From a virus (taxonomy: Duplodnaviria > Heunggongvirae > Uroviricota > Caudoviricetes), in IMG/VR virus record IMGVR_UViG_2698536312_000017: a stretch of DNA of 17,716 nucleotides, one strand, 5' to 3'. The position numbers and the translations under genes were made by a program. Under the pieces are notes generated by a model, which did no database searches, had not been told where the DNA came from, and worked only from the letters and a program-made list of their open reading frames with translations. Below, piece by piece: positions 1 to 17,716 of the stretch. Every line of letters starts with the position of its first letter. The stretch's first letter is position 1.

Positions 1-525
1 ATGAACATAGCGTTGATCTGACTGCTCTTTACTGTAAACCTGAAGATTATCCCGTGCCGTCCCTTTATTCTGAAGGTCTGACAGATTGTTCTTCTGCCGC
101 AGGAATATCCTTTTCGGATCCTCAAGAAGATTTACCCAGCCCGCACTGTCGGAGCCTTCAGGATCGGTCAGGTTATCGTCTGCGGTATTCAGCCAGACCG
201 CTGTTGTTGCGACTCCGGCGAGAATGGCTCCTTTTGCATATCCACCAATGGCCCCCGCAAAACCGGCATTATACGTGTACAAACCGCCAGCCTGGGCGAA
301 CCGTATTGCTGCGGTAATATCGTACATCAGACCGTTAAAATCCTTGCCGTGTGGCGGTATACCTCCCGCTGAGACCGCTGTCATGGTCACCGGAGGAAAA
401 CCTGAATCATACGCAGCATTACCGCTCTCTCTGGTCTGCTGTGTCGCCTTGTCCGGGATACGGTTTTTATCTCCGGTACTCGCAAAGGGGACCGCCAGCT
501 GGCGGGGGTTATCACTGGCCTTCAT
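1..525 (-). CDS. tail fiber protein, N-terminal part (gene continues past the left window edge)
   Basis: Hand translation of the minus strand from ATG at 525..523 is open to position 1 (175 codons, [28 protein letters not shown]...). Strong RBS AAAGGAG about 7 nt upstream. Contains the NLSDL...ARDNL type motif I associate with enterobacterial phage tail fibers. Last gene of the baseplate cluster. Not in the ORF track because the stop lies outside the window. Confidence 0.7.
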
Positions 526-1117
526 TACGGGGCTCCTTTAAAACCACTGAAACATAAACACCCGGCGGGGATGGCAGTGCACCCGACGACTGGATAATCG
601 CCAGTTCTGCCAACGAGAGCGCGGACTCAAAGATGTAACTCATCCTCAATCCACCATTATTCAGAACATAAGCCCGGCGTTTTTTTCCGAACATAAATCT
701 CAGCATCCGGTTAATATCCGGAACGGAACAGTCAGTAATGTTCGACATGGCTTTCATCAGTATCAGCCGCCGGTATACAGCATCAGACAGGTCAACAGTC
801 CGGGTATCCGATTTTCCGTTGTAAAACGGTGCCTGATTAAACGGACAGGGATCATCCATTACCGGGGTGTCCATCCTGGACTCGCTGAAGCCCAGGTAAT
901 TAAAATCGTCCTTTACCGTCAGCCGGCGACTGACACCCACAATCTTTCCCCAGACATCAAGACCATACTTTTCTGCGGTATCGATGTTCCAGATAAGACC
1001 ATAAAAATCACTGATAAAACTGTCGGGGGAAAGCGCTGCGTTAAAGCTGTTAATGAGGGCATTGAGTCGGGGGCTGGCAGCATACTGCGCAAGCACAGTG
1101 GCAGCCACATTCTGCAC
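512..1117 (-). CDS. baseplate/tail-fiber-attachment protein (P2 gpI / Mu gp48-like position)
   Basis: 201-aa ORF between the J-like gene and the tail fiber. Start is GTG at 1117..1115, preceded by AGGAGG about 6 nt upstream. Function inferred from position and size only. Confidence 0.5.
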
Positions 1118-1118
1118 G

Positions 1119-2360
1119 TTATGCCTCCTGGAGTTTCACACTGATATCCGACACATCCAGAACCGGAATCTCATCTATCCCGAAAGTGACAGCCGTTGTC
1201 CATGACGAACCGTCACGGCTCACAGTAAGGCCCAGAATATCAATATGTTCCGGATCGGTTTTGTAAATGCCGGCATAGTAGCGCCCGGCAGAGACAACAG
1301 AGGCAACTCTTGCCCGCAGACCACCATCTGTACCATTAAATGCGTCCAGCACGGATTGCTGTACCTGTCGGGTAATATCTGAAGGCAGGTAGTCACTTTT
1401 TTTCAGCGTCACACTGACATGCAGACTGACGGGTTTGAGTGTCTGCCAGCTGATCACGTATTCAGGATACGGCGGATCGTACTCCTTATCTGCAACAGTG
1501 AACGTTGTGTTGCCATTCATATCAATACCCGGCGGAGCCTTACGCCAGATGGCAGCCGCGATATCTGCCGGGCTGCCGCCGTACACGCCAACATACAGCG
1601 AACCGGGTGTTAATGGATACTGACTGACTCCGGCTTTTTGTTCTGTTTTTTTCGGATTATGGGTGACGTAAACATCCACCACGTTTTCTACCGTGGAGAG
1701 TATTTCACCCCGGATGGCTTCCAGAATATTCCGGGCATTACGGGCAACTGAATTACGTCGGCGGTTTTCAAAGTCCGCACGGGTTTCCTCATCGCTGCCC
1801 GGCACACCGGCACTGGCGTTAGTGACACCTGACCAGCCAGGTATTGCCTTATAAATTTTATTCAGCGTCCCCACAGGACAGCCGACGGGGCCGGTGGACA
1901 AATTCAGAAATACCGCATCAACCTGCCCTGATGCGCCGATAGTGACGTCTGACTGACTGACATACTTATAACCGGCCTCATCCTGCGCCATACTGCCCGC
2001 CGGGATCAGCGTGCCAACCAGCCCGGTACAGGTCGCTGTTACTGTCGTACCTGTGGCCCCGCGGCGCTCCAGGAAATAAATCCTGCCTATTGCATCCTGA
2101 AAGCGACCACTGGAAAAGTCAGGGTTGATCTGGTTAACGATATACAGCAACTGATCGTTTTTATCCGCAATAATGGCGCTTTCGCTGGATGCAAGTTGTC
2201 CCTGCGGACTGCTCAGACTGGTACTCATGGCCCCGCCCAGCGCCGCCGAAAAATCAGCAAGCCTGCCGCTCAGAATATCCGCTTCATCCGGCACATTCAG
2301 CCCGCTATCCGAAATCTGTACAGCGGGCACTGCGGTAGAAAAAGATTTATTTTCACTCAT
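1119..2360 (-). CDS. baseplate J-like protein
   Basis: 413-aa ORF; ATG at 2360 overlaps the upstream stop (ATGA). Size and position (after the W-like gene, before the gpI-like gene and fiber) fit the baseplate J family. Confidence 0.65.
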   Translation of the reverse strand: MSENKSFSTAVPAVQISDSGLNVPDEADILSGRLADFSAALGGAMSTSLSSPQGQLASSESAIIADKNDQLLYIVNQINPDFSSGRFQDAIGRIYFLERRGATGTTVTATCTGLVGTLIPAGSMAQDEAGYKYVSQSDVTIGASGQVDAVFLNLSTGPVGCPVGTLNKIYKAIPGWSGVTNASAGVPGSDEETRADFENRRRNSVARNARNILEAIRGEILSTVENVVDVYVTHNPKKTEQKAGVSQYPLTPGSLYVGVYGGSPADIAAAIWRKAPPGIDMNGNTTFTVADKEYDPPYPEYVISWQTLKPVSLHVSVTLKKSDYLPSDITRQVQQSVLDAFNGTDGGLRARVASVVSAGRYYAGIYKTDPEHIDILGLTVSRDGSSWTTAVTFGIDEIPVLDVSDISVKLQEA

Positions 2361-2713
2361 AGCAGTACCGTAAAAATGTCATTATTGGTATCTGTAATAC
2401 GCAGCACACCTGTTACTGTCCGGGTTTGATCAGCTGTGACCTGGCAGACAGCGGCGCTCACAGTCGGCAGTTTAAGTGCTTCCTGTTGCAGAGAGGCATT
2501 CACCAGTTGTGTGCCGGGCCAGTGTCCGAGGATGCGTGGCCAGTAAGGTATGCCAGCCGTTGAGTCGTACCAGCACTCCCCCAGAAAAGTACTGCACGCA
2601 CACGCCACATCCTGAGCTACCGCATGGGGATTATCAGTAATGGCAAGATTTCCGGTATCATCAAGCAGGATATCCCATGTCCCGGTGTCAAGAAGAAGTG
2701 ATCGTGACTGCAT
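2357..2713 (-). CDS. small baseplate protein (gpW/gp25-like position)
   Basis: 118-aa ORF with AGGAG RBS upstream of ATG at 2713; lies between the spike and J-like genes. Assignment by synteny only. Confidence 0.4.
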   Translation of the reverse strand: MQSRSLLLDTGTWDILLDDTGNLAITDNPHAVAQDVACACSTFLGECWYDSTAGIPYWPRILGHWPGTQLVNASLQQEALKLPTVSAAVCQVTADQTRTVTGVLRITDTNNDIFTVLL

Positions 2714-2725
2714 GTTTTCTCCTGT

Positions 2726-3403
2726 TTACCGGGGTCCCTGCGTGGTTGAGCCGCCGGACTCAACGCCGCCGTGAACGTGGTTTCCAAAATCAATACCCCC
2801 GATGTTCGAACCGCCGGAAAGCCTGGACTGCCCGGTAACGTTAAGCCCCTTACTGACGGCGGTATCGCCGTTCAGCGCAATTTGTGGTGAGTTAACGGTG
2901 AAGCTTTTCGGCGCATTAATCACACCCTCAGGCGCGGATATCTCCACTTTCCAGGGAGATACAATCCGTATCTGGTTGTCATCAAATACCACAAACTGGA
3001 CGGGATCACCGTTGAGCACGCCACCCAGCCAGATGGCATCAGCATAATTATGGGTACGCTTTGATCCCGGCATCGCAGCCTGACGCGTGGCTTTTACCGC
3101 ACTGATATCCCGATCGCAGATGGCAAGAAAACCGATATCCCCCACATGTGGCGGCATAATCACCGCATTACCGCCCCCCTGTAGTCGCCATACGGGAATG
3201 TTATAAATCACCTCATGTTCAACCGGGGAACCGTCTGCTGCAACGCCCATTACCATCGGTCGGGCCTCAATAAATCCCTCTTCCACGGCTACCACCCGTC
3301 CCAGAGTGATAAACGCATGACGTCCGAGAAACTGCCGCAGCATAAAGTCCTGTGCATTGATTTCGCTGTTCACGTCTGTCGGGTTACTGAGTGGTTGTGC
3401 CAT
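2726..3403 (-). CDS. baseplate central spike protein (gpV-like)
   Basis: 225-aa ORF. The C-terminal third is Gly/Asn/Ser-rich and ends in GNHVHGG (HxH at 2771..2779), the apex motif of gpV-type spikes. Lies upstream of the W-like and J-like genes. Confidence 0.65.
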   Translation of the reverse strand: MAQPLSNPTDVNSEINAQDFMLRQFLGRHAFITLGRVVAVEEGFIEARPMVMGVAADGSPVEHEVIYNIPVWRLQGGGNAVIMPPHVGDIGFLAICDRDISAVKATRQAAMPGSKRTHNYADAIWLGGVLNGDPVQFVVFDDNQIRIVSPWKVEISAPEGVINAPKSFTVNSPQIALNGDTAVSKGLNVTGQSRLSGGSNIGGIDFGNHVHGGVESGGSTTQGPR

Positions 3404-4253
3404 TTTCTTCAGCCCTCATCATGGTACAGTTGGAACTCCACGGACCGCCCACGGTTCGCGAAGTAATGGTGTGTATCACCCCAGTGATCGTATAATCGCC
3501 CGTCATATCAGGCAGTGACGATTCCAGATGCGCTGGCCTGCCAGTAAAGAGATCGGGGCAGAATATCGTGGTGGCGCTGAGTCCGGTCATGGTGTAAACC
3601 GGATAGCCAGTCAGTCCGTGATCCGGCGAAATCAGTACCGGCGGAATATTCCGGTTCTGCCCTTTCGGCCAGATGGTGACTTTCTCCACATTCCCCAGAT
3701 CAATGTTAATATCGGCGGCTGAAGCGACATCCAGCATTTGTTGTACAACATTACCGGAAAAATGCGGGTCAGACAGACTGCGGCTGACCCCCTGGTTTTC
3801 AAATCCAAGCCCGACAGTTGACGCCAGCGCACGGATAATATCTGCAACCGCAACATCGCCCTTTGCGCTGAAATCTGCCGCCGGCTGATTACGCAGATTA
3901 AAATGAATCTGTCCTGTCAGAATGAGCGGAATATCCGGTGCCTGGTTGTAGTCGGCGTATGCATCAGTAATATCACCTTCAAAAATAAGCCGCCCGTCGG
4001 CCCACAGCCGCATTTTATTTGCGGTACTCTGCTCCTGTCGCCACACACCGCGCCAGCTTAAATTCGTCATATGCGCCGGTGACATTCCCCAGATATACAG
4101 CGTGATTTGTGTACCAGCCACCCCTCCATATACGGCAATACTGGCAAAACAGCTTGCGTCGGTAATGGTCAGCATATTGCCCTGGCCATTACCAAACGTT
4201 CGTCCGTCTGAAAGAGTGAACTCCACCGTTATTTTACGTTGTCTGTAGCTCAT
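3384..4253 (-). CDS. putative baseplate hub / tail protein
   Basis: 289-aa ORF translationally coupled to its neighbours; position between tape measure and spike suggests a hub. No diagnostic motif recognised. Confidence 0.35.
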
Positions 4254-4552
4254 ATCAGTTCCTCAGGTAACAGCCAGTAGAGCCGGTACCGGGATCCGAG
4301 CCCCCGCCAGTCAGGGTCACTATTCCCCTCCGTGTCGGTAAAAAACAGGTCCCCCTGAAACGGCAGGTATCCGTACCGGACAATCCGGTTATTATTCAGA
4401 CACAGCACGCCATACAGGCACGGTTCACCATTAACAATGATATCGATATACATCCCCGTAGTACGCTGATTCAGGCGAATGGTGCAGACCTGAGCGCCCA
4501 GTGTCACCGTAAACTGCTGGGCTTTAACGGGAGATAAAACAATTTCCAGCAT
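4250..4552 (-). CDS. hypothetical tail-module protein
   Basis: 100-aa ORF with start and stop overlapping both flanking genes; embedded in the tail operon. Function unknown. Confidence 0.4.
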
Positions 4553-5262
4553 CAGGTGATCCCCCTGTTCGTGGCGCTTCGTCTGTCAGCGTCTGACGGT
4601 TGTGTCACCGACGCCGTAACTGGCTGCGTTTTAACCGATGCGGCCCCTTTTGCTTTATCGTTGTCCGTGGGAGACGACTTATCCGTACTTCCCACTGACA
4701 CCTCTCCTGTATTCATTACGGTCTGAAATACCGCAGTAACCGTCAGTAAGGTCGGACCATTATTACTTCGCATTCGGTAGTCATATTTCACAAGGTCGCA
4801 GGATGTCCATGTCTTGTCCGGCGTCTCAATATCGTAGAGTCCTGCCGTGGTACGCATCCTTTCAAGCGTTTCCAGCACATTCGTCCGCGAGGTGGTGGAA
4901 AAATTTGTCAGGTTCGGGACGGATCCGGAAAAGGCCGTCCACCCCTCTACAGTGAAAGTCACATGCAGTTCCGGCGATCTCTGGATTTTATTAAAGGTGG
5001 TATAAGCCCCCTGCTCCACGGGGACGGTGGAAACAGAAGCCTCCGCGCCCACCTCAACGACAACAAAAGAATCCGGGGAGAAAGGTTTGCCACCCTTCTG
5101 ATGGGCACCTGCCGGATCATTCCGTGCGTAATAAATACCGAATGACGGTGCCAGTACACTGTTAATGAGTCCCAGGACACCGCCGCCACGAACTGCACTC
5201 AGTACGTTACTTTCACTGAGCGAAAAGTTATTCAGGGAAATATTATCGAAAGAAAAACTCAT
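4552..5262 (-). CDS. putative tail protein immediately after the tape measure gene
   Basis: 236-aa ORF; ATG at 5262 overlaps the tape measure stop (ATGA). Ser/Thr-rich C-terminus. Function by position only. Confidence 0.4.
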
Positions 5263-7280
5263 CCTGTTACCCCGCTGGAATAAACCGACACGAGCGCCGA
5301 ATTCGTGATACGCCGACGTGCGTCATCGGTAATACCCTTCACATTGTCCGACGTTGTGGTGACATTCAGTGTCCCGATATGCGTGGTTTCCGTTACGGTG
5401 GACTGCCATACAGGCGCAGGATGGCGCGACCGTATGGCCATTGCCGCACCCGGATAAGGCAGGTTCGCCAGCACCCGCGGAATATAGTTGCGGGTCTCCT
5501 CCGGAGCAGCAGCCAGTCCCTTACGCTGAACATTTCCCTCTCCCCAGTTATATGCCGCCAGAGCCTTAGCCAGATCGCCATGAAAAAAACGTATCAGGCC
5601 ACCAAGTTTTCTCGCGGCGGCATCAGCGGCTTTTTCGGGATCAAAGGCATCGTTCCCCCTCAGACCAAATTCCCTGGCCGTCTTCGGCATGAACTGAAAC
5701 AGTCCCATCGCACCAGCAGGTGAGACGGCAAACTGATTACCACGGGATTCGGTGATCGCAACGCTGCGCAGCAGTCCGGGCGGCAGGTTATATTTTTCCT
5801 CCAGTTGAGACAGTTTCGGTTGCAGCCAGCCTAACAGGGCTTCCCCGGTCTTCGTCGGTCGCTGGCGGTTTTGCATGGCATTACCGAGTTTTTCCTGCGT
5901 CGCACGCATACCCTGTAGCCAGGATTCACCGAAGGCTGCTTCCCTCCCGGTTGCCTGAGAAGCCTGAGTATCCAGCATGCCCTGCTGCCATACTGTGGGT
6001 GATTGTGCCCGGGTGATGTTGCCAGGCTTTTCTCCGGCATCCAGTTTTGTCTGATACGTCTCCATCTCTTTCTTATTGAAAAAGAAAGTCCCGTCTGAAG
6101 CCCAGAAAAAACCATGTGAATCCAGCCAGTCCTTATTTTCCCTGCCAACAATGGATGTCAGTAATCCGTCAACAACCGGGTAAAGCGCCGTTATCGCAAA
6201 AAGAAGGCCTCCGGGGCCACTGAGGGCTTTTGTCAGCCCCCGCACCCATGACGCCACTTTCAGCCCGATCAGCGTAATAATGACATTCTGCCAGCCCCCC
6301 AGTTCTCCGGCAGCCTTATTCGCCAGGGAGGCCACTGACTCAACGTCATTCAGAAATGTGGTGATAAACCTGTTCACTTCCTCCGGATGTTGCTGCATCC
6401 AGTCACCGAGTGTCTCCAGCCAGTGGCTGAGCTTCAGCGCGTACGGCATCAACGCGGTGCTAATCGTCATCCCGATGCCGGACCAGGTCTGATCGAGCTC
6501 AACAAGCTCTTTTCGTAGCTTACGGGCCAGCGCTGTACGCCCCGGCGTAACCTGCGAACGGGAAGTAAATTCGTCCACATCTTTCAGCGCATGACCGGAG
6601 CCAAGAAACTGCTGTCCGGCATAACTGAAGCCCAGCGCGTTGCCGTAGGCAGTTTGTTCGGACTTTGTCAGTCGCGGAAAAATAACCGCCAGCTTGCGCA
6701 TGATGGCTTCAGTGCTGTCAGTATTTAAATCAACACTAATGCCCGCCCTGGCTGCAACCTGAAACAAATCCTGTAACACAGGATCAAAGGACCTTCCGGC
6801 TCTGAAGGCCGCTTTTGCATTTGCAAGCCGGGAAAATGCCCCAGACATTTCCCCTTCATCAACATTATTTGCCCGCGCAGCCCGTAACCATCCGTCCAGA
6901 TTTCTGGCCTTCATGCCAAAAGCATCAGATTCCACGGACAGACGGTTCAGATCACGGGCAAAACCTGTTACCAGGTTCTTCAGCCCCCCCAGCGTCAGAC
7001 TGACACCCGCAAGAGCCAGAATCTCGCTACGGATCCCTGAAAAAAAACGGGACGCCCGTTTCCCGGCATCTTCCATTCGACGGGCCGTTTTATCAGCATC
7101 TTTTCCGGTTTTTTCCAGTGATTCACTGGTTTTCTTCTGTCCCTGACTGAATGTGTCAGCGACACCTTCCATCACCGTCGTGAGCCGGTTAAGGGCAGCA
7201 TGTACTGCCTGTTCCCCGGCAGTAAAGTCCCTGTCATCAATCCCGAGGGACAGAACAAGCTCATCAAGTACCTGCGCCAT
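5259..7280 (-). CDS. tail tape measure protein with lytic transglycosylase (SLT) domain
   Basis: 673-aa ORF with AGGAG RBS. Hydrophobic central segments (aa about 320-380). Residues about 495-605 carry family-1 lytic transglycosylase motifs (TESRGNQF...AMGLFQFMP...AAYNWGEGNV). Follows the chaperone gene. Confidence 0.8.
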   Translation of the reverse strand: MAQVLDELVLSLGIDDRDFTAGEQAVHAALNRLTTVMEGVADTFSQGQKKTSESLEKTGKDADKTARRMEDAGKRASRFFSGIRSEILALAGVSLTLGGLKNLVTGFARDLNRLSVESDAFGMKARNLDGWLRAARANNVDEGEMSGAFSRLANAKAAFRAGRSFDPVLQDLFQVAARAGISVDLNTDSTEAIMRKLAVIFPRLTKSEQTAYGNALGFSYAGQQFLGSGHALKDVDEFTSRSQVTPGRTALARKLRKELVELDQTWSGIGMTISTALMPYALKLSHWLETLGDWMQQHPEEVNRFITTFLNDVESVASLANKAAGELGGWQNVIITLIGLKVASWVRGLTKALSGPGGLLFAITALYPVVDGLLTSIVGRENKDWLDSHGFFWASDGTFFFNKKEMETYQTKLDAGEKPGNITRAQSPTVWQQGMLDTQASQATGREAAFGESWLQGMRATQEKLGNAMQNRQRPTKTGEALLGWLQPKLSQLEEKYNLPPGLLRSVAITESRGNQFAVSPAGAMGLFQFMPKTAREFGLRGNDAFDPEKAADAAARKLGGLIRFFHGDLAKALAAYNWGEGNVQRKGLAAAPEETRNYIPRVLANLPYPGAAMAIRSRHPAPVWQSTVTETTHIGTLNVTTTSDNVKGITDDARRRITNSALVSVYSSGVTG

Positions 7281-7892
7281 TTCTGTTCTCCTGTATCACC
7301 TGTTCGTTATGGGCATCCACATGAATTATTTCCAGCAGATCCCATAAGTCCTGCACACCAAGGACAGAATCCAGTTCAGCTTTTGAAGCCTTACCGGAGG
7401 AGATAACGGTCGCAATGGTACGGGGAACATTAACGTAATCCACCACCCCGAACGGTCTGTCGGGGTCGAGATAACGCGGGGGGATATCTAGCTGACGACG
7501 GTAGCGAAAAAATCCACATGCAGCTTAAAGACCTCCGCACGCAGATTAAGACGGGTAATGATTTCTTCAATATCCTCTTCAACAAGCGGTCTCCGGATGC
7601 TGCGTTTTTTCGGATCGGGAACAAACTGCACACAGTCCATCATTTCATCCATCAACGGACGCGCCTCATCAGGCGGAATTTTCGATAATGCTTTCAGCCC
7701 TTCAAGGGCAAGCGCAGCCATCCCCAGACTACGAACATCATCCGGTAACTCCACGCCACCACGCCCCATTGCCATAATGGCACGCATCGCCCACCATTCC
7801 GCCTGTGAGGCAGACATTTCGGTAAGATGAAATACCTTGCCCTTATCCCGTCCCTGACCTTCAATAGTGATAAATTTCTCTTTACGGGCCAT
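7264..7892 (-). CDS. tail assembly chaperone frameshift product (GT-like, predicted -1 frameshift)
   Basis: The -1 frame is open from 7524 to a stop at 7264..7266. A slip at TTTTTTC (plus coords 7506..7512) would fuse about 129 aa of the chaperone to an 80-aa extension (…HVDFF-RYRRQLDIPPRYLDPDRPFGVVDYVNV…). Prediction only. Confidence 0.45.
7488..7892 (-). CDS. tail assembly chaperone (G-like)
   Basis: 134-aa ORF between the tube and tape measure genes. Slippery heptamer T_TTT_TTC lies 5 codons before its stop, with an open -1 frame downstream. Confidence 0.65.
   Translation of the reverse strand: MARKEKFITIEGQGRDKGKVFHLTEMSASQAEWWAMRAIMAMGRGGVELPDDVRSLGMAALALEGLKALSKIPPDEARPLMDEMMDCVQFVPDPKKRSIRRPLVEEDIEEIITRLNLRAEVFKLHVDFFATVVS
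7506..7512 (-). other. candidate slippery heptamer T_TTT_TTC for the chaperone -1 frameshift
   Basis: Minus strand reads GAT TTT TTC in the chaperone frame; X_XXY_YYZ pattern; -1 frame open downstream. Confidence 0.45.
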
Positions 7893-8338
7893 CAGTTAAA
7901 AACCTCCGGAGTAATGGTTTCCCACTCAATAACCGCCTGCCCTGGCTGCAACGTACGAGCTGCATCAGGCAGCGCTTTCCATTGTTTGAGTACGCCATTC
8001 ACGCAGGTATATTTACGGCCAATCGCCGGAAGCAGGACGACAGCGTTACAACGGAATACAGCCCGACTGGCCCGGGATGTGGTTGACCAGGTATCAAAAA
8101 TATCCCGGCTGGGGGAATCCGGCATGATATGAAACGTCTGGATAATGTTGCTGTACACAAATCCCGCGGACAGTTTACCGTCAATACCGCGGGCAGTTTC
8201 CGCCAGTACCAGTGGATCGGTGCCATAAACGTTATCTGTTGCAAATCCCTGAAGTCGTACGCCGGAGGGATACAGATTATTCACTGTCAGCGTGATAATG
8301 GCATCCGCCGCAGTGATGGTGTTGTTGTTACCCGACAT
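7892..8338 (-). CDS. tail tube protein
   Basis: 148-aa ORF directly after the sheath gene (TAA then ATG adjacent) and before the chaperone; size and position typical of a contractile-tail tube. Confidence 0.6.
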   Translation of the reverse strand: MSGNNNTITAADAIITLTVNNLYPSGVRLQGFATDNVYGTDPLVLAETARGIDGKLSAGFVYSNIIQTFHIMPDSPSRDIFDTWSTTSRASRAVFRCNAVVLLPAIGRKYTCVNGVLKQWKALPDAARTLQPGQAVIEWETITPEVFN

Positions 8339-9823
8339 TTACTGGACCTCCGTGGATGCAATAACAAGTTTCTGGATACTACCGCCGTCACAGTACCAGA
8401 GCGTACAGGACGGACTGCTACGGGTTGCCCGCAAAGAGGGAAGCATATCGCCGATATACAGGTAATAGCCGGTGGCAAACAACGTTGAAGAAACATCTGC
8501 CCCCACAACATTGTTAATCTGTTTCTTCTGCGCCTCCGTCAGTGTCACCCCTTCACGGATCCCTCCCCAGCGTTTGTACTGCTGGATAACGTCACTCATT
8601 GACGCTGCAACCAGCGCCCGCCCTTCATTGTTGTAGGGGATCGTCTGGTTTGACTTGAATAACGCGATCACCGCCCCCTGCAAACTGGCATTCAGCCAGA
8701 TTTGCCCGCAGAAACTGTCCAGCCATTTAAAATCACCGGTAATAGTGCCATCCGCCCAGTAATCTTCCACCACACTGTTTTCCGCATATTTTCCGTAGAA
8801 ATTGTAACCTGCGGCGATCAGCGCATCATAATCGCTGCCACTGGTAACATCAGCGGCCAGCCCCTCATACTCGCGGAACTTGAATGATACACGCCCCTCT
8901 GGTCGGACAAAATCAAGGCACGCTGCATACCCCAGTACCGCTGCAGCCCGGTTACCATCAGTCGCGAAAACAGGTACAACAGAGCTGTAGTTATTGACAG
9001 CAATTATCTGGTAAGCGATGTGTTCAGTACTGCCTTTTACTCTGGCGTTGCCGCTGGTTGTCCATGCCACATAAAAGTAACGCTTGCCCTGCCCGTTTGC
9101 CCATGCAGAAAACGCCAGGTGTTGCTCGTCAGTGACCTCAGATACCGTGGAAAAACCCGCCCATTGCTGGGAAGCGGCCTTAATGGCTGCCATTGTGTCA
9201 GGGACATCAGATACAGGCGCGCCCCGGGATATCACCGCACCGGTGTTACTGGTCATCTTCAGGAGTTCTGCTGCCGATCCACTGCCGAACGTTATCGTGG
9301 TACTCCCGGGTTTCGCCCCGGCGACAGTAATGACAAAAGCATTCTGTGTGGTATCGAATACCACTGTAGCCACTGCTGCGGTCAGCGCTGTCTGTAGTGC
9401 CGTTGCAGCAGCGGCGAAGCTGGCGACACCGTTAAAATTCACTTCAATGCTGACGCTTTTCCCGTTAATACTCAGCATCAGCGTGCCGGAAAGTTTTTGT
9501 AGCTGTTCAACAGTCGCGCCCTTAAACGAACCGCTACGTAACCAGGCCGCCGATGGGGCAGGACTGAAACGGGAAAACAACAATTGCCCCGGCGTCCTGG
9601 TGGCATTTTTGAAGCCCTGGAAATAAAGCTGAGCGCGTGCGTACTCATCGGATAATGCACCAAAATACGCGGCCACATCATCCGGAGAGGAAAACGGAAC
9701 CACAGTGCCGACCGGAAGTAACGGATTACTGGTCAACAGCAGGCCGTTAAGATCGACGGCATTACCCGCCACAGCCAGCACACCGGGATTTATCTGTACA
9801 TCTTTACTGAGTGGAATTGGCAT
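8339..9823 (-). CDS. tail sheath protein
   Basis: 494-aa ORF with GGAGG RBS; the largest protein between the capsid and tube genes. Assigned by size and synteny. Confidence 0.7.
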
Positions 9824-10349
9824 TATCAGCCTCCGTTGTCCGGGTGATCACGTTGTCAAAAAACATCAGGGAAGTTGTGACCACAGGGTTAATCTGCATC
9901 TGAATATCAAGCGTCCAGCGCGGTTCATACTGTTGCTGACCGTTGGGGAATGTGGTGTTAAAGGGCTCTGAGCAATACAGCGGGGAAATCAGCCCACCGC
10001 CCTGCCGGAAAAGCCGTACGGAAAATTCAGACCGGAAAAGCGTTGCCAGCACCTGCGCGTTATCTGCCGCGTGAGGGCCGTAGAAATCAAGCTGGCAACG
10101 CCATTTTGTGGTACGGGTGATATGCTGAGAGCCCTCACCAGCCTGCGCTGGCGCAGAATATGCCACTACCGCAGTGGATAATCCGGTAACATCAATGCCC
10201 GTCATGGTGATGAAATTCCCCTGAGGCATCGGGACCTGGTTCTGCTGCGTTCGTTCAATCCCGGCATCAGAAAAAAGCCCCCGGAGATAATCACCGAGGG
10301 CCTGATAAAGAGCGCTTTCCGTAACGGAGAGGGTCACACCTGAAGGCAT
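9804..10349 (-). CDS. putative neck / tail terminator protein
   Basis: 181-aa ORF immediately upstream of the sheath gene, overlapping it by 20 nt. Function by position only. Confidence 0.35.
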
Positions 10350-10699
10350 ACAATAACCCTCATCCAGTCAGGCCAGATTTCCGGTACCTCAATCACCAGC
10401 CACGTTTCATCGCCAATAACAAATTTATCGCCTCCCTGTTGCCGGGCACGGTTAAGCCCGCACCAGTTACCATCGGTATACAATGTGGCGAAAACTCCCT
10501 GCTGGTTAAGATTATCAAGATGACGTAAATCAGCCTGGGTGACAGCCTGCTTTTGCACCCTGACGGAAACCGGATCTTCATACTCAGGTACGCGGGAATA
10601 ATCTGCCTGCTGTGTACTCCCGCGGGAACGATAAACCAGCGCGTCTGTAAAGGGATTTACCCGACGTACTGCGCCGGAAACAATACCGTGAAAGTTCAT
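10334..10699 (-). CDS. putative head-tail joining protein
   Basis: 121-aa ORF in the connector cluster; ATGA overlap with the upstream gene. Confidence 0.35.
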   Translation of the reverse strand: MNFHGIVSGAVRRVNPFTDALVYRSRGSTQQADYSRVPEYEDPVSVRVQKQAVTQADLRHLDNLNQQGVFATLYTDGNWCGLNRARQQGGDKFVIGDETWLVIEVPEIWPDWMRVIVCLQV

Positions 10700-11280
10700 T
10701 TTTTGCCCCCGTCTACAGAATAATCAACGCTGTCCATCATATGTCCGGTTTCAATAAGCGGGTTGTTAAAACCCTTTTGCCGGGCAGTGGATGCAGCGTT
10801 GGGCGGACTTTCCCAGTCGCGAACAGACATCTGCAACTGCCCTTTGATATGTTCTCCCATACACACCAGAGCGGTCGCAGTATCAAAATCATTCGCCCGT
10901 AATAAGGTCGCCATTTTTTCGCCCCATTCGGGACTTTTATGTTCGATCATCTTACGGAAGAACGGACGGGGGGGAATGGTGACCGTGTGCTCAGGAATAA
11001 CCACATCCTGAACAAAATTCCCTTTACCGGCTTTGACAAAGCGGTGCCCGGTTTCTCCCGTTTTTTCGTTATAGCGAAAGTGGAGCGTCTGCTCACGGGC
11101 GGGTATGACCGCTCTTCCACCAAACTCCTGAACTGCGGCAATATAAGCCACTGACGTACCGTCAGGGTAAGTTGCTCCCTCAAGAAAACCCACTTTGAGT
11201 TTTTTACCCAATGAAAGGTTCGCGGCAACCTGTTTCAGCTTCTGCCGGAACTGTTTGCCACCTGTGACTTTATTTACCAT
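10696..11280 (-). CDS. putative neck/connector protein
   Basis: The ORF track extends to 11550, but that N-terminal stretch is Arg/Trp/Cys-rich and overlaps the upstream gene. I chose the internal ATG at 11280 ([10 protein letters not shown]...), which has a GGGAGGGG RBS and sits just inside the upstream gene's end. Confidence 0.45.
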
Positions 11281-11728
11281 CGACGCCCCTCCCGTATCCC
11301 CGGTAATAATGCCCCGGATATCGCGAAGGTGACCCCCCGGAATGATACTGCATTGAGCGGTATGGCGCTGTCGCCTGCCAGTAGTCAGCACCCCAGGGGG
11401 TCTGGAGATACCACCACGACGCATCATTACTGCCGCTATTATCCACCGATACCGATACAGAACCTTCCGACGCACTGGTGATACGCCCCACCAGACCAGC
11501 CTGCCCGTCTCTCCCGTTTCCCAGCCCCCGCAATGCGCACAGATGCGCAACCAGCAGGAACAGAAGCTGTTCCCGCTCCTTCAGGTCGGTAACCGGACTG
11601 TCGTCCGTGTTATCCAGGTACAACGCGGTCGCCTGGTTAAACACCGCCGTCAGTAGCTCCGGTGTCACCATGGAAAACTCCGGGTACAGACTGACAAACA
11701 TCCGACAGTCAAACGTCACCGTACCCAT
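11270..11728 (-). CDS. putative head-tail connector/adaptor protein
   Basis: 152-aa ORF with AGGAG RBS. N-terminal region (…[14 protein letters not shown]…) resembles a small connector family seen after capsid genes; Gly/Tyr/Arg-rich C-terminus. Confidence 0.4.
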
Positions 11729-11733
11729 AGCGT

Positions 11734-12081
11734 TTACTCCTGAGGTTTACCCATCACTTCATCATTGCGGTTAACGCCCGGAGCCGGATTTTTCTGCGGC
11801 AGCGGTTCAAGGCCGGATTTAACGGCTTTCTGCTCCGTAGCCTGCGAGACTGCACTGTTCGCCTTATCCTGCGCAAAAATAACGCCATTTTTCACATAAG
11901 GTTGCTGTCCGTGCTCCGCCAGCCAGGCGTCAAAAAACACCTTATCGACCTGCGTCAGACCATAGCCCCCCACAATTTTAACCGCGTTATTCCGCCAGCC
12001 TGCCACCTGAACCCGTTTCTGACCCACTTCCAGCACCAGACCGTTCGGCAGTTTGCAGCCCACTGTTACCATTTCAGCCAT
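11734..12081 (-). CDS. hypothetical head-associated protein
   Basis: 115-aa ORF immediately downstream of the major capsid gene; unknown function. Confidence 0.4.
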
Positions 12082-12084
12082 AAC

Positions 12085-13113
12085 TCACACCCCCAGCATT
12101 TGTGCATACGCCAGCGGCTGGCGAATAATCGCCCCCCAGGTACCAGCGGATTTTTTCTGTTTCCAGGAAGACGTATCTGCCACTACCGCATGGGCGCGCA
12201 TTTTTTCAGTGAAAGCGCAATAGCCTGTATCCTGTTCACCCAGACGCTCCGCGATAAGCTGTACCAGCTCGCCAGCGTCAGAGGTGTATTCCACCGCCGT
12301 TTCAATGGTCATCGCCGGGAAATTTTTCGCCAGCAGATCGGACACGTTAACCCTGTACTGGTTTGTTTTGGTGAGGTTCACCTCTGCCAGCGGCGACATG
12401 CACAGTTTCATTTTGTCGGTACGCTCAATATGACCGTTAGTCTGTTTCACCAGTTGCTTAAAGAGTTTCACGATATCGTCATACACGCCCTGTCCGTCCT
12501 TGTCGTCCCACTTCAGTTTACCGTCAACGGTATCCGGGGTGATTGGTGCAGATAACGACGGATCATTCAGCAAACCGTAGTTCGTCAGTCCGGCAATACC
12601 GTAGAAATAGGACTTATTCTGGAACTTATTCAGCGTCAGTGCTGACGCCACGTTCAGCTCTGCCGCCCAGCCAATACGGGCTGCGCCGTACATCTCCAGC
12701 TCACGTTCGCCCCATACGGTGAAGGTCTGGAAGTGATAGCTCTGGCGCGGTACCCAGTTGACGTTTGCGCTTACCACCCCGTTGTTGCTGTAATCCCCGT
12801 AGGAACTCACCTCCCCGTCAGATTCTGCAATCGGGAATTGTGCCGACAGTGTCGTCCAGTCACCTTTTTTGGTTTCGCCCAGAATCTGAGCGGCTTTCAT
12901 CGGCGTCACCAGCACGCGGATCAGTTCTGGCTCAACGTAATTGGTGAAATACGCAGGGATACCGCTGTTAGCCGCTGTGACCAGCGCAGGCTGCGCGTCC
13001 ATCGCCAGTCCGTAATCGGCGGCGTACTCCTTCGGCAAATAAGCCTGTGCTCCGGGAAGAATAATCCCGTAGTCGCGACTTGCCGTCGCATAATGCTGTT
13101 TAAATTTATTCAT
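12085..13113 (-). CDS. major capsid protein
   Basis: 342-aa ORF; TAATG overlap with the upstream gene and a GGAG RBS. Position after the protease/scaffold-like and small head genes and before the connector genes; size typical of an HK97-fold capsid protein. Confidence 0.6.
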
Positions 13114-13595
13114 TATTTGCTCCAGGTACTGATCTTAATGACTTCTTTTGCCGCCGCAGCGCTGGCAACGGAAAACCAGGTTTCGACAAACCCCGCCATC
13201 GAGGTGCCAGCCGCCCCCGTGGCTATCTCCCCGGTGGCCAGTGAGGCAAATACTTTCTGCCCGATCGTCGCAGTAGTGGTGGTCAGCGCCCAGAAATCCC
13301 CCGACACCATCAGGGTGCATTCACGCCCCGGATAAATGGTGTTCGAGTCCCCGGCCAGCCATTCCACAATGGAAGCCTGCCCGTCACGAGGAACAAAACC
13401 CGCCGGTGCGCCGGCCCCCTTATTAGCGGCAACACCTTTGGTTACCCAGGCAAACCGGGCAATTACCAGCCCGTCAGGGCCGGTAATCAGCCCGCCATCT
13501 CCCGCCACATACGAGGCATGAGGGTTAGCACTGGCAAACGCCCCCGGAATACCCGGTGCCGGGTACTGGTTCATGTGTGTCTGAAAAGTATTCAT
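13113..13595 (-). CDS. putative capsid decoration / small head structural protein
   Basis: 160-aa Gly/Ala-rich ORF immediately upstream of the capsid gene. Confidence 0.35.
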
Positions 13596-13596
13596 A

Positions 13597-14946
13597 TCAG
13601 TAACCTCGTTTCAGTTTTGCACCGGGGAAATCTGCCGCAAACGTCGATGCGCTGGCCTGATCCATCGCCACACGGGGAGAGGATTTGGCCGTCTGCTTCT
13701 GCTCAACGGCAAACTTCACCATGCTGCGGTACGCACCCGGGTGAATACCCTGAATATCGATCCCCGTCTGTTCCAGCGCGGTACGGTAAACATCTTCGGC
13801 GCAGTCCATCGCCACCACATCGCCAATCAGCGGTCGCACTTCAGCTTCAGCCACACGGACGGCGCGGAAATTTTCAGCAGCCCGTTTCGTTGCCTGGTCA
13901 GTTGCCAGCCTGATTGCTGCATCCATCGCAGGTTTATCGACTTTCACATCGTCGGGTTTCACATCAGCCTCTTTTGTTTCGGGGGCTTCGTCGGTTGTCG
14001 GAGACAGTGCGGATTTAATTTTTTCCAGCACATCATCAGGAACTTTGCCGGACAGCAACGCCAGTACACTTTCCATCGGGCTGTCGGTATCAAATGCCTT
14101 CGACTCGTCAGTTAACCCGGTATCATCATCCCCGACCAGCTCCGGTACGGCTTCTGCTGATTCCATCAGTTGCGCCAGCTCCGCCGGTTCAATATCCATA
14201 TCCTGTGCCAGCCGTTCGCTGTAAGCAGTTTTTACCGCGCTGGCGATAGCTGCCGGACGCTTATACTGCGCCATCAGGCGTAACAAATCCCCGGGAGCCG
14301 CATCCTGCGCCAGACGCGGCGCAAGATAGGTTCCCAGCGCGGTAAGCACCGCCACTTCTTTTTTACTCAGTTTCATGCGTTTTAGCTCCTGAGGGAGAGA
14401 GTCCATAACAAGACAGTCCGACCCTACCCGGCCATCGCCGACCAGGGCCACATGATTTCCCACGATATTCCGCATAACGCCGTCATACGGCTCACCGTCG
14501 GGGGTGGTTCCCGGCGTCATATCTGCCACATAGGCATATGACGATGAGATTTCCCGTTGTTCATCCGTTTCTATCCCCGCGATGGCGGAGTTGTCCCAGA
14601 TGGACATGCCGTTAACCAGATAGGTACCGTCAAACTCGCTGTTGGCATGAGTCGTCCCCACCCGGTACTCGCGCGCGGGCGCGCCCGGATAATCGGGTTT
14701 GTGTCGGCACAGGACGGGAATATTGTTGAAGGTTGAAACTGCCTTGCGCAGTTCATCGGGGTCACGGTAAAGCTGATAAAGTTTTTTGGGGTCGAGTCCC
14801 AGCGCTTCCGCCCCCGGTATTTCATACCCGAAATAACCGCAGACGTTCGCCTTGCTGAGATTACTGCGCTCAATCTGGAGGCGACCGACTTTATCGAACT
14901 GCCTTACCGATGCCCGGTCAAACGCCAGCATTTCGGTAATAATCAT
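13597..14946 (-). CDS. putative prohead protease / scaffolding protein
   Basis: The ORF track starts at GTG 15018. I prefer ATG 14946..14944, which overlaps the upstream stop as ATGA and has a GGAG RBS, giving 449 aa. An acidic, Ala/Glu-rich central linker is scaffold-like. Lies between the MuF-like and capsid genes. Confidence 0.45.
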
Positions 14947-15713
14947 TTTTTCTCCAGTCCGGGAATAACGGCCTCCCAGCCACACCGGCAGTTGATTTCT
15001 TCGCCCGGCAGTACCCACTTACCATCCAGAAACATCCCCTTTCGCAGGTCAAACCGTTTACCGTTCGCCTTCACATGCGACGGACGCCATGTTTTACCCG
15101 CGCGGGAATGCCGCCAGACACCTTCAGTGATACCCACCGAACGCTGTCTGGCGGCCTGCATTACCGACGTTGCCTTATTGTTCTGGTCGCGGGCAATCAG
15201 CGCCGCGCGCCGTCGTGTGATGCCGTAACGTTTTTCCAGTTCATCGGTCAGCGTTTTCAGGTCACGTCCCCGGCCAACAGACTGCATGACCAGTGTTTCC
15301 ACCTGGGTGAGATGTTGCTGCGGGATGGAGCGAATGAGGTTCACATTCTCCGTGATGCTGGCCTGAAGTGCGGTATTCATCTCCGTTGTCATACGGAAAG
15401 GAACCGTAAACCCGGCATCACGGAGCGCAGTGTACAGTGACGCATCGCTGTTTTTCAGGACATCACCGGCAAACCGCCTCGCCAGCCGCAGGGCCATTTC
15501 GTCAAAATTTTTCTGCCAGCGCCTGGCAAGTTGCTGCATGGCACCACGCATCAGGTTAACGGGGGACGCATCCTGCGCGAGGTCTGTTTTACGGTACTCA
15601 GCCCGCAGCCAGTAAAGTACACTGTTGTGCATCCCACTGACGGCATTATCCAGTTGTCTGCGGTACCAGGCCTCAATCCCCGCGTTGGGTGAAATCCGCC
15701 TCAGGGTCTGCAT
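14943..15713 (-). CDS. head morphogenesis protein (Mu F / SPP1 gp7 family)
   Basis: The ORF track starts at TTG 15764; the first ATG is at 15713. C-terminal …[12 protein letters not shown]… is typical of the MuF/gp7 minor head family. Directly downstream of the portal. No extra C-terminal toxin domain. Confidence 0.7.
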
Positions 15714-16914
15714 TCGGGCCTTGCGGCGGATTTTCTTCGGTGTTGTCAATTTCAGTGTCGTCAATTTCGATGTCCCCGCTCAGGTCAATACCGCTGTACG
15801 GGCTGTCCTGCGCAGTCGCCAGCCGTTCGCGTACTTCGTTATTGGTCACTGCTCCGGTGCTCTCATAAATCTGATCCGTTTCCGCCTCAGTTTTACGGAT
15901 ATTCGCCAGTTGCTCGCGCGTCAGCTCATGCAGGGGTTCAAATTCAAACGTGATATCAGGATCGATATCGCCGAACTCAGACAACTGGATAATATCCAGC
16001 ACCTTTTTCAGCGGTTTCTTCAGAAGACGGGTGGCAAGTGCAGCAATGGTGTCGTAAAACACCCGGATTTCACCCTCACTCGACGCATTCAGTCCCGTTG
16101 GGCTCAGCCCGGCGAATTTTACGGACGGTATGGCACTGACAAAGAACATGTGTTCCTGTGCCTGCGCCTGAAGGGTGTCGAGGCCGCTCAGGGGAGTGTT
16201 GAACTGGAAAAACTCTTCGTTCGTCTTGTCCAGCATCAGCAGCCCGCGGTTATCACGGGTACGGTTAAACAACTCCGCGCGTTTTGCGTAATTCGGGTCC
16301 CTTTTACCACTTAATACCTGTGTCATATCCGTCTTAATCCCGCTCAGCGAAAACGAATGCAGCATATCGCCCACGCTGTCGCGTGTTCGCAGCCAGTTAT
16401 CAACATAAGGCTCAGCAATCTGAACCAGTGACAGGCCGCCAAAGTTGTAGGCCGGCTTCAGCATGTCCGGAACCGGACGGGAGATCAGATCAATCATGCG
16501 GCTGGCGTGAACCGTTTTTCCCATTACGTACCATTCGGACGGACGGTAAAAATCATCACTCAGCGGATTATCCGCGTTATATATACCCGGATACGTCCAG
16601 ACGGGTTCAATAACACGAAGCCCCAGCAGGGAACCTTTCGGGATTTTTTTGTCGGAAATAAACAGTCCGGATCCCAGCTCCGCCGGGTCAGTCCAGGCAG
16701 ATATACCCGATGGCGAACGCACATCAATATAAATCTGCCCTCGCCCGAAAAAGCCGTCGTGCTCAATCGCCAGTCTGAAAACGTCCTGTACGTTATAGTG
16801 CTCCAGTGCGTCAGTAAGCTGCGCTATGCGTGACGCGTGGCTGTCGTCCCCTTCTCCGACCGCCTTAACCTTTATCCACTTACGGGTCATCTCCTCGGCA
16901 AGCACACTGACCAT
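15673..16914 (-). CDS. portal protein (probably 5'-truncated by IS1; frame open up to 17003)
   Basis: 413-aa ORF from ATG 16914, directly upstream of the MuF-like gene, with an acidic C-terminal tail. The same frame has no stop between 16914 and the IS1 end at 17004. Confidence 0.65.
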
Positions 16915-17018
16915 ACGCCGGTACTCCGGTAACTGCGCCTGAAGTGCCAGATACGGATAGCCCGGGAAACCACCATAAACAAAATCAGGATAATGACTGT
17001 TCAGGTAATGACTCCAAC

Positions 17019-17522
17019 TTATTGATAGTGTTTTATGTTCAGATAATGCCCGATGACTTTGTCATGCAGCTCCACCGATTTTGAGAACGACAGCGACTTC
17101 CGTCCCAGCCGTGCCAGGTGCTGCCTCAGATTCAGGTTATGCCGCTCAATTCGCTGCGTATATCGCTTGCTGATTACGTGCAGCTTTCCCTTCAGGCGGG
17201 ATTCATACAGCGGCCAGCCATCCGTCATCCATATCACCACGTCAAAGGGTGACAGCAGGCTCATAAGACGCCCCAGCGTCGCCATAGTGCGTTCACCGAA
17301 TACGTGCGCAACAACCGTCTTCCGGAGACTGTCATACGCGTAAAACAGCCAGCGCTGGCGCGATTTAGCCCCGACATAGCCCCACTGTTCGTCCATTTCC
17401 GCGCAGACGATGACGTCACTGCCCGGCTGTATGCGCGAGGTTACCGACTGCGGCCTGAGTTTTTTAAGTGACGTAAAATCGTGTTGAGGCCAACGCCCAT
17501 AATGCGTGCAGTTGCCCGGCAT
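17019..17522 (-). CDS. insB: IS1 InsB (expressed as InsAB' transposase by -1 frameshift)
   Basis: 167-aa ORF …[52 protein letters not shown]… matches IS1 InsB as I remember it. Confidence 0.95.
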
Positions 17523-17716
17523 CCAACGCCATTCATGGCCATATCAATGATTTTCTGGTGCGTACCGGGTTGAGAAGCGGTGTAAGTGAACTGCAGTTGC
17601 CATGTTTTACGGCAGTGAGAGCAGAGATAGCGCTGATGTCCGGCAGTGCTTTTGCCGTTACGCACCACCCCGTCAGTAGCTGAACAGGAGGGACAGCTGA
17701 TAGAAACAGAAGCCAC
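17441..17716 (-). CDS. insA: IS1 InsA
   Basis: 91-aa [26 protein letters not shown]… matches IS1 InsA as I remember it; GTG start at the window edge. Confidence 0.95.
17457..17467 (-). other. IS1 programmed -1 frameshift site (TTAAAAAACTC, A6C)
   Basis: Minus-strand TTAAAAAACTC in the insA/insB overlap; this is the established IS1 InsAB' frameshift motif. Confidence 0.85.

Follow-up and report, generated by a model that had tools for sequence, protein, structure and literature searches.

Homology-based evidence for an IS1 insertion in the portal gene of a Shigella sonnei prophage

IS1 is the main IS of Shigella sonnei, where it is still expanding and where simple insertions are by far the commonest event, and the splitting of genes by IS1 is a standard mode of genome decay in Shigella (PMC7373316). 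The element carries two overlapping genes, insA and insB', which are joined by a frameshift at an A6C motif, its transposition is replicative and intramolecular, and the target duplications it produces are 8 or 9 bp long (PMC12903888). IS copies lacking a matching target-site duplication (TSD) are classically caused by IS-IS recombination or by adjacent deletion (PMC11708052), and Shigella genomes are rich in IS-bounded inversions (PMC8072062). Defective, IS-ridden prophages are also known, such as the IS-flanked Stx prophage of S. dysenteriae type 1 and the cryptic prophages of K-12, in which particle formation has been lost via IS insertion or rearrangement and many of the structural genes can still be read.

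The locus described here lies in a stretch of 17,716 nucleotides (IMG/VR record IMGVR_UViG_2698536312_000017, hereafter the window) and may be compared with both of these groups. As in other IS1 disruptions in Shigella, a 768-bp IS1A element with insA, insB' and the A6C motif is accompanied by an 8-bp duplication and by a gene split into two pseudogene fragments; there is no mechanistic difference from the usual case, and what distinguishes this one is its site, portal nt 212-219, which is rarely hit (about 5 drafts versus hundreds of intact copies). Compared with the defective prophages mentioned above, decay is here at a very early stage, with one break in the window and the other late genes being full length and 99.7-99.9% identical to intact copies. 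We consider it very likely that, in a prophage of a minor S. sonnei sub-lineage, a transposing IS1 entered a 513-aa portal gene at codons 71-73, duplicating 8 bp and splitting the portal and the late operon from the terminases. An event of this type, here affecting the late operon of a prophage, is a textbook example of gene inactivation by IS1 in a pathogen rich in this element. The element, the duplication length, the fragments and the possible rearrangement all have well-known precedents.

The element, of the IS1A type, is co-oriented with the portal gene and occupies positions 17004..17716 on the minus strand, so that 713 of its 768 bp fall within the window. Its right end (IRR), with the terminal inverted repeat GGTAATGACTCCAACTTATTGAT (17004..17026), begins at 17004, and the window breaks off at 17716 on the GTG start codon of insA, where 55 bp are still missing up to the left end, in agreement with the roughly 55 bp that had been estimated to lie beyond it from the letters alone. 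Both insA (17441..17716, minus strand, 91 aa) and the insB' frame (17019..17522, minus strand, 167 codons) are intact and are joined by the A6C programmed -1 frameshift motif TTAAAAAACTC (17457..17467, minus strand), and the product matches the Pfam families Zn_ribbon_InsA, HTH_Tnp_IS1 and DDE_Tnp_IS1. The full element can be read in a draft contig, CXDB01000068.1 (GCA_001256715.1; here L004), which was reached by exact look-up of the 413-aa product of the adjoining gene and is 100% identical to window positions 5673..17716 (window position p being CXDB01000068.1 position p+1). In L004 it occupies positions 4578..5345, is 768 bp long and has 23-nt terminal inverted repeats, the arms of which are complementary at 18 of 23 positions, in keeping with the imperfect repeats of about 23-30 bp that bound IS1 elements; it is identical at 768 of 768 positions to IS1A-family elements on the S. 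sonnei pINV plasmids of Ss046 and 53G.

Directly beside the right end of IS1, at 15673..17003 on the minus strand, lies the 3' portion of a prophage portal gene, comprising nt 212-1542 of a 1542-nt gene, that is, codons 72-513 plus the stop codon, with 99.9% identity to the intact 513-aa gene in 8 E. coli genomes. It belongs to the family Phage_portal_3 / DUF1073 (PF06381, E=3e-82), the window ORF reaching a score of 276.6 bits and an intact relative one of 285.7 bits (gathering cut-off 33.8). Gene callers report a 413-aa ORF (15673..16914, minus strand) from this region, and the exact protein is annotated as 'putative bacteriophage protein [Shigella sonnei]', but its ATG (16914..16912) is the internal Met101 of the intact portal and not the native start. 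The sequence-only reading had put 413 aa on the short side for a portal; the intact relatives have 513 aa. Nucleotides 1-211 are absent, and since the Pfam portal domain covers residues 87-449 of the intact protein, the 413-aa product is without profile positions 2-15 of PF06381. The break itself (...MDATPYDTL71, then the residues up to 101, then VSVLAEE...) is located upstream of the Pfam domain, and the 71 N-terminal residues removed form a Pro/Glu-rich extension, not part of the conserved core.

Among dodecameric portals of solved structure, sequence searches relate the protein to gp19 of the Pseudomonas phages E217 (PDB 8fvh, E=2.8e-32) and Pa193 (9b41, E=9e-33), with homology over residues ~190-483 (E ~1e-32), and genes near the window portal match the Pfam families of these two phages as well (gp24, cement protein, gp27, gp28, sheath gp31, tube gp32 and gp41). 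The enterobacterial portal differs from them in having a Pro/Glu-rich N-terminal extension of ~80 residues, which is outside the alignments to the E217 and Pa193 portals and most of which has been removed by IS1, and the enterobacterial structural module differs in being joined to lambdoid lysis, Q and early genes.

Whether the portal gene is interrupted is settled by homology and not by the openness of the frame. Of the IS1-free copies used (n=18, from E. coli and Shigella), 8 come from complete E. coli genomes (loci L001-L003 and L007) and 10 from other E. coli/Shigella loci, which were reached via the capsid protein; the copies are 99.6-99.9% identical to the window up to 17003-17005, identity running on to 17005 because the first two bases of IS1, GG (17004-17005), happen to equal the target. 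Megablast with window positions 15600..17003 returned the 8 complete genomes at 99.8-99.9% identity, the annotated portal gene in each being 1542 nt long and encoding 513 aa. Beyond the point equivalent to 17003 the relatives continue with 211 nt more of the portal gene, then TerL (539 aa) and then TerS (Terminase_2 small subunit). The gene order in all IS1-free copies is TerS-TerL-portal-Mu_F-type head morphogenesis, and in the window IS1 stands in TerL's place. The intact target GACACCCTGAACAGTCATTATCC is present in all 10 further loci, one of which is an S. sonnei contig. The sequence-only reading had taken IS1 to lie probably inside the portal gene, separating its 5' end and the terminase genes from the rest of the operon, and had proposed alignment to IS1-free relatives as a check; the uninterrupted 513-aa portal found in these and their gene order bear out both points. 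No homologue starting at the equivalent of 16914 was found among the IS1-free relatives, nor is there in them a terminase stop codon or intergenic sequence within 16915-17003. When window positions 16500..17300 were used as a query, the insertion was absent from complete E. coli genomes, and the 39-nt portal/IS1 junction had 0 exact matches in one-genome-per-species contigs, a result to be expected if that set treats Shigella as part of E. coli.

The portal frame on the minus strand is open upstream of the ATG over 16915..17061 and is closed by a TGA (TCA on the + strand, 17062..17064). The part between 16914 and 17004, described beforehand as stop-free and as ordinary protein text, turned out to be portal residues 72-100, the 29 codons upstream of the ATG at 16914 being identical in IS1-free relatives. 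A Leu codon (17002..17004) straddles the portal/IS1 junction and is followed by 19 full codons of open frame within IS1, and both this number and the coordinates given earlier for the TGA were confirmed. This extension into IS1 (17005..17064, minus strand), which is a product of chance, contains no ATG, GTG or TTG, and any portal product must therefore start at Met101, without the first 100 residues. At the stop-codon frequency of the window, a frame is expected to stay open for 29 codons with P ~0.27-0.33 and for 49 codons with P ~0.11-0.15, so the caution that an 89-nt open stretch can arise by chance was justified. The two other frames had been said to give an immediate stop or Arg/Ser/Trp-rich text; each does contain one stop close to the junction, but elsewhere they are open too, and frame openness therefore does not discriminate. 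With P ~0.3 for 29 codons, chance alone could have opened the stretch upstream of a natural 413-aa portal in which nothing is interrupted. This reading is nevertheless practically out of the question, given that the 29 codons match residues 72-100 of the 513-aa protein conserved at 18 or more loci free of IS1 and that the 413-aa product falls short at the beginning of its Pfam profile; it was ruled out on this identity together with the Pfam start at residue 87.

One copy of the 8-bp target-site duplication is found at 16996..17003, reading ACTGTTCA on the + strand and TGAACAGT in the portal sense (portal nt 212-219). For the other side of the element, the protein encoded by the severed portal 5' fragment was predicted by reading into the left end of IS1 (GGTGATGCTGCCAACTTACTGATTTAG) after a duplication of 8, 9 or 10 bp, and was looked up in a collection of 15 billion proteins. 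An exact match is present for the product of an 8-bp duplication (81 aa, residues 1-73 followed by GDAANLLI and a stop), and those of a 9-bp (74 aa) and a 10-bp duplication (80 aa) do not occur in the collection. An 8-bp target duplication at portal nt 212-219 is thus demonstrated at the protein level, and the check for a duplication of 8-9 bp proposed by the sequence-only reading has in this way an indirect positive outcome. The 81-aa fusion product appears on 4 contigs under the name 'Uncharacterised protein [Shigella sonnei]', and for 2 of the 4 its accession is two away from that of an S. sonnei TerL allele (CSQ64468/CSQ64466 and CSQ85884/CSQ85886), the fragment being apparently encoded next to TerL. 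In addition, the distance of CSQ64468 and CSQ85884 from the accessions of the 413-aa protein (CSQ61306 and CSQ81570) is no larger than the span that one genome takes up. From this closeness of accessions and from the matching rarity of the two proteins, rather than from a shared assembly identifier, we infer that both halves are in the same genomes. A homologue search with the missing 71 N-terminal residues returned only 4 proteins, the expected S. sonnei fragment not being among them.

According to the reading that we prefer, an active IS1 would have transposed into portal codons 71-73 of a lambdoid prophage carrying an E217-like myovirus structural module, duplicating the 8-bp target in the process. 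The window would then represent the downstream half, with the right end of IS1, portal codons 72-513 and intact head, tail and baseplate genes, and the upstream half, comprising TerS, TerL and portal codons 1-73, would persist elsewhere in the genome, abutting the left end of IS1. The portal, if made at all, would be an N-terminally truncated product from Met101, and the structural genes would be at least 768 bp of IS1 away from the terminase genes and the late promoter region. Because of the truncated portal and of this separation, the prophage should be unable to assemble DNA-filled heads, and a loss of prophage function is predicted.

L004 is the only contig that crosses this IS1. The same portal junction is seen in an independent draft contig (L006), the first 30 nt of which belong to the right end of IS1. 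On the far side of the element, L004 carries a 3' fragment of the chromosomal gene yjcF (espX5), consisting of its last 77 codons (4335..4577), and beyond it yjcE, ghxP and soxR. Translation of the far flank had been suggested as a means of finding the portal 5' end; in L004, a single draft contig, yjcF' stands there instead, and the portal 5' fragment itself was found elsewhere, as described above. The portal halves may therefore no longer be neighbours. The 9-bp flanks of the L004 IS1 differ, being ACAGGCTTT on the yjcF side and TGAACAGTC on the portal side in this single short-read contig, and with no matching direct repeat around the element, the present structure is not a plain insertion unless L004 is chimeric. 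Such a lack of a matching repeat could also be accounted for by an IS1-mediated adjacent deletion up to portal nt 211, a classic cause of TSD-less IS copies (PMC11708052), by which the portal 5' end, the terminases and the early genes would have gone from the genome. This explanation is highly improbable, since a deletion leaves no reciprocal junction, whereas a fusion of the portal 5' end to the IS1 left end does exist in S. sonnei, apparently by TerL, with an 8-bp overlap, and yjcF and the ttcA-site prophage are moreover ~1.8 Mb apart in an E. coli-like gene order. Adjacent deletion was rejected on the reciprocal junction with its 8-bp overlap, which points to a true transposition.

The yjcF fragment has a wider distribution: the 77-aa YjcF tail is found on 366 contigs, one of them a 4.7-Mb chromosome, and the break is an old and common one. 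No IS1 was found at the same yjcF position among complete E. coli genomes, of which 17 have an IS1 elsewhere in or near yjcF. The gene looks like a repeated IS1 target, and it is frameshifted in O121 RM8352.

Three accounts of the present structure fit the observed junction orientations. It is quite conceivable, with something less than an even chance, that the plain insertion is still in place, a sub-variant of the transposition that we prefer, and that the yjcF-IS1-portal join in CXDB01000068.1 is a short-read chimera across a repeat with hundreds of copies. Simple insertions are the commonest IS1 event in S. sonnei (PMC7373316), and the same 8 bp are found at both portal junctions. The element is bridged by only one contig (in 2 samples), the other contigs with the 413-aa protein being no longer than 20 kb or starting inside IS1, and L004 breaks at another IS1 at its soxR end; the yjcF break being older and common, a yjcF-IS1 end was also available for mis-joining. 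Against a chimera, the bridging contig is identical in 2 samples, where a random chimera would rarely recur, and the bridged IS1 is free of gaps and Ns.

Alternatively, and rather less probably, the insertion may have been followed by an inversion through recombination between the portal IS1 and the resident IS1 of yjcF; a one-step route would be an intramolecular replicative transposition by which the yjcF copy attacked the portal. Either would give an inverted segment with yjcE-yjcF'-IS1-portal 3' at one end and yjcF 5'-IS1-TSD-portal 5'-TerL at the other. L004 indeed reads yjcF'-IRL...IRR-portal 3' with no shared flanking repeat, and the orientation of all three observed junctions fits such a product. 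A TSD absent from around one IS copy is a known sign of IS-IS recombination (PMC11708052), 103 of 114 reconstructed inversions fall on Shigella branches (PMC8072062), and IS1 transposes replicatively and intramolecularly (PMC12903888). However, in a K-12-like order the two IS1 copies would be direct repeats, recombination between which leads to a lethal 1.8-Mb deletion, so that a prior rearrangement in S. sonnei is needed, and the whole account hangs on a single draft contig. A genuine yjcF linkage would be the mark of a large rearrangement brought about by IS1 in the sub-lineage.

The layout of L004 also suggests a third account, which we regard as improbable, namely that a Tn9-like composite IS1-soxR'-ghxP-yjcE-yjcF'-IS1 (~6.1 kb) entered the portal gene as a unit. 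It could have transposed by means of its outer ends, or been excised as a circle that then recombined into an IS1 in the portal. Positions 1..53 of L004 are the right end of another IS1, abutting soxR at about codon 12 (soxR' 54..485), so that the redox-sensing regulator SoxR is without its first 11 residues in L004. As in a Tn9-type composite, a chromosomal segment of 4,524 bp (soxR'-ghxP-yjcE-yjcF') is enclosed by two IS1 copies in direct orientation, with the IRR of the left copy at 1..53 and the IRL of the right copy at 4578. The outer ends of such a unit would be an IRL by portal 5' and an IRR by portal 3', which are the two junction types observed, and DNA bordered by IS1 ends can be mobilised by InsAB' in trans (PMC12903888). 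The outer end of the right copy carries TGAACAGT, but that of the left copy is off the contig, and although an IRL-TGAACAGT-portal 5' junction exists it is not assignable to that copy, so nothing ties the left IS1 of L004 to portal 5'. The composite would further presuppose that the native soxR-yjcF locus has been lost or has been duplicated, and is a rarer type of event than simple insertion. Unlike that of a Tn9-type composite, the cargo of L004 consists of truncated housekeeping genes, and two independent insertions, into soxR and into yjcF, are a simpler origin for the layout. If the composite reading were true, the locus would offer a natural instance in which IS1 had carried housekeeping genes from the chromosome into the genome of a phage, here into a prophage late operon.

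Apart from the portal gene, the late operon (512..15764, minus strand) is in good order. All of its ORFs are full length compared with the relatives, as expected from the earlier statement that the structural gene set was otherwise intact, and it is cut off from TerS/TerL and the late promoter region. Its genes encode, in order, Mu_F-like head morphogenesis, Pa193_gp24-like and cement proteins, the major capsid protein, head-tail adaptors, terminator, sheath, tube, an SLT tape measure and baseplate proteins. The structural genes of the window are also separated, even on the mildest account, from the lysis and Q-antiterminator region that the relatives have upstream. Positions 1..17005 of the window are collinear with the intact prophage of E. 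coli CFSAN029787 at 99.7% identity, the differences being 47 substitutions and two indels, of 1 nt and 3 nt. The shorter indel (window position 6984) is a frameshift in the CFSAN029787 tape-measure gene (L007 12461..14481) and not in that of the window, where the tape-measure gene with its SLT domain (5259..7280, 673 aa) is intact; the 3-nt indel, at 8320..8322, lies in the tube gene (148 versus 147 aa). Two minus-strand ORFs, of 134 aa (7488..7892) and 60 aa (7264..7446), separate the tube gene from the tape-measure gene, a position usually taken by a pair of tail-assembly chaperones expressed by programmed frameshifting. A scan of the window against Rfam gave no match.

The intact relative in CFSAN029787 (L007, 4672000-4721000) is a lambdoid prophage of ~44 kb at the ttcA/intR (Rac) site, with sitABCD just past its tail-fibre genes and four tRNA genes upstream of its lysis genes. 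As the window starts essentially at a draft-contig end inside a tail-fibre gene, the tail-fibre end of the prophage studied here, and any sit genes, are outside the view. The prophage module is widespread and annotated in the genomes of E. coli, Shigella and Salmonella, and some genomes carry two copies of the structural module on different lysis and Q modules, in a mosaic fashion (L015/L016; L011/L012). Megablast against a phage collection returned no match to the portal region and the best matches by protein were Klebsiella temperate phages at ~59% identity, hence no named phage corresponds to this prophage.

With regard to frequency, the exact 413-aa sequence occurs on 6 contigs, one of which, from E. 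coli OK1357, is without IS1, leaving about 5 S. sonnei draft contigs. Intact 513-aa alleles are found on 186 and 227 contigs, including S. sonnei entries of the same accession series, and 816 indexed blocks of the collection contain the capsid protein. These counts, about 5 truncated against 186-227 intact, suggest that the insertion is rare and recent in an S. sonnei sub-lineage, a rarity consistent with the ongoing accumulation of IS1 in S. sonnei (PMC7373316). In the OK1357 contig (L005 1..2100; GCA_000188855.2) the 413-aa ORF results from two frameshifts near portal codons 69-79, where one nucleotide has been inserted and one deleted, and TerL is split into 503 + 38 aa, which may reflect homopolymer sequencing errors or real decay.

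The case has little significance beyond correct annotation and is one more example of continuing IS1-driven decay. The 413-aa 'putative bacteriophage protein' should be relabelled as a portal pseudogene fragment, and the isolates concerned should be recorded as having a defective prophage. The insertion, being a clean, recent and lineage-specific marker, could serve in the sub-typing of S. sonnei. Other copies of the module are decaying via other elements (L013 = CP091398.1, 4.99 Mb; L010 = CP125938.1; L012): in these, IS66-family elements are found in TerS and downstream of the tape-measure gene and an IS110-family element in the baseplate region, and L013 has many frameshifts.
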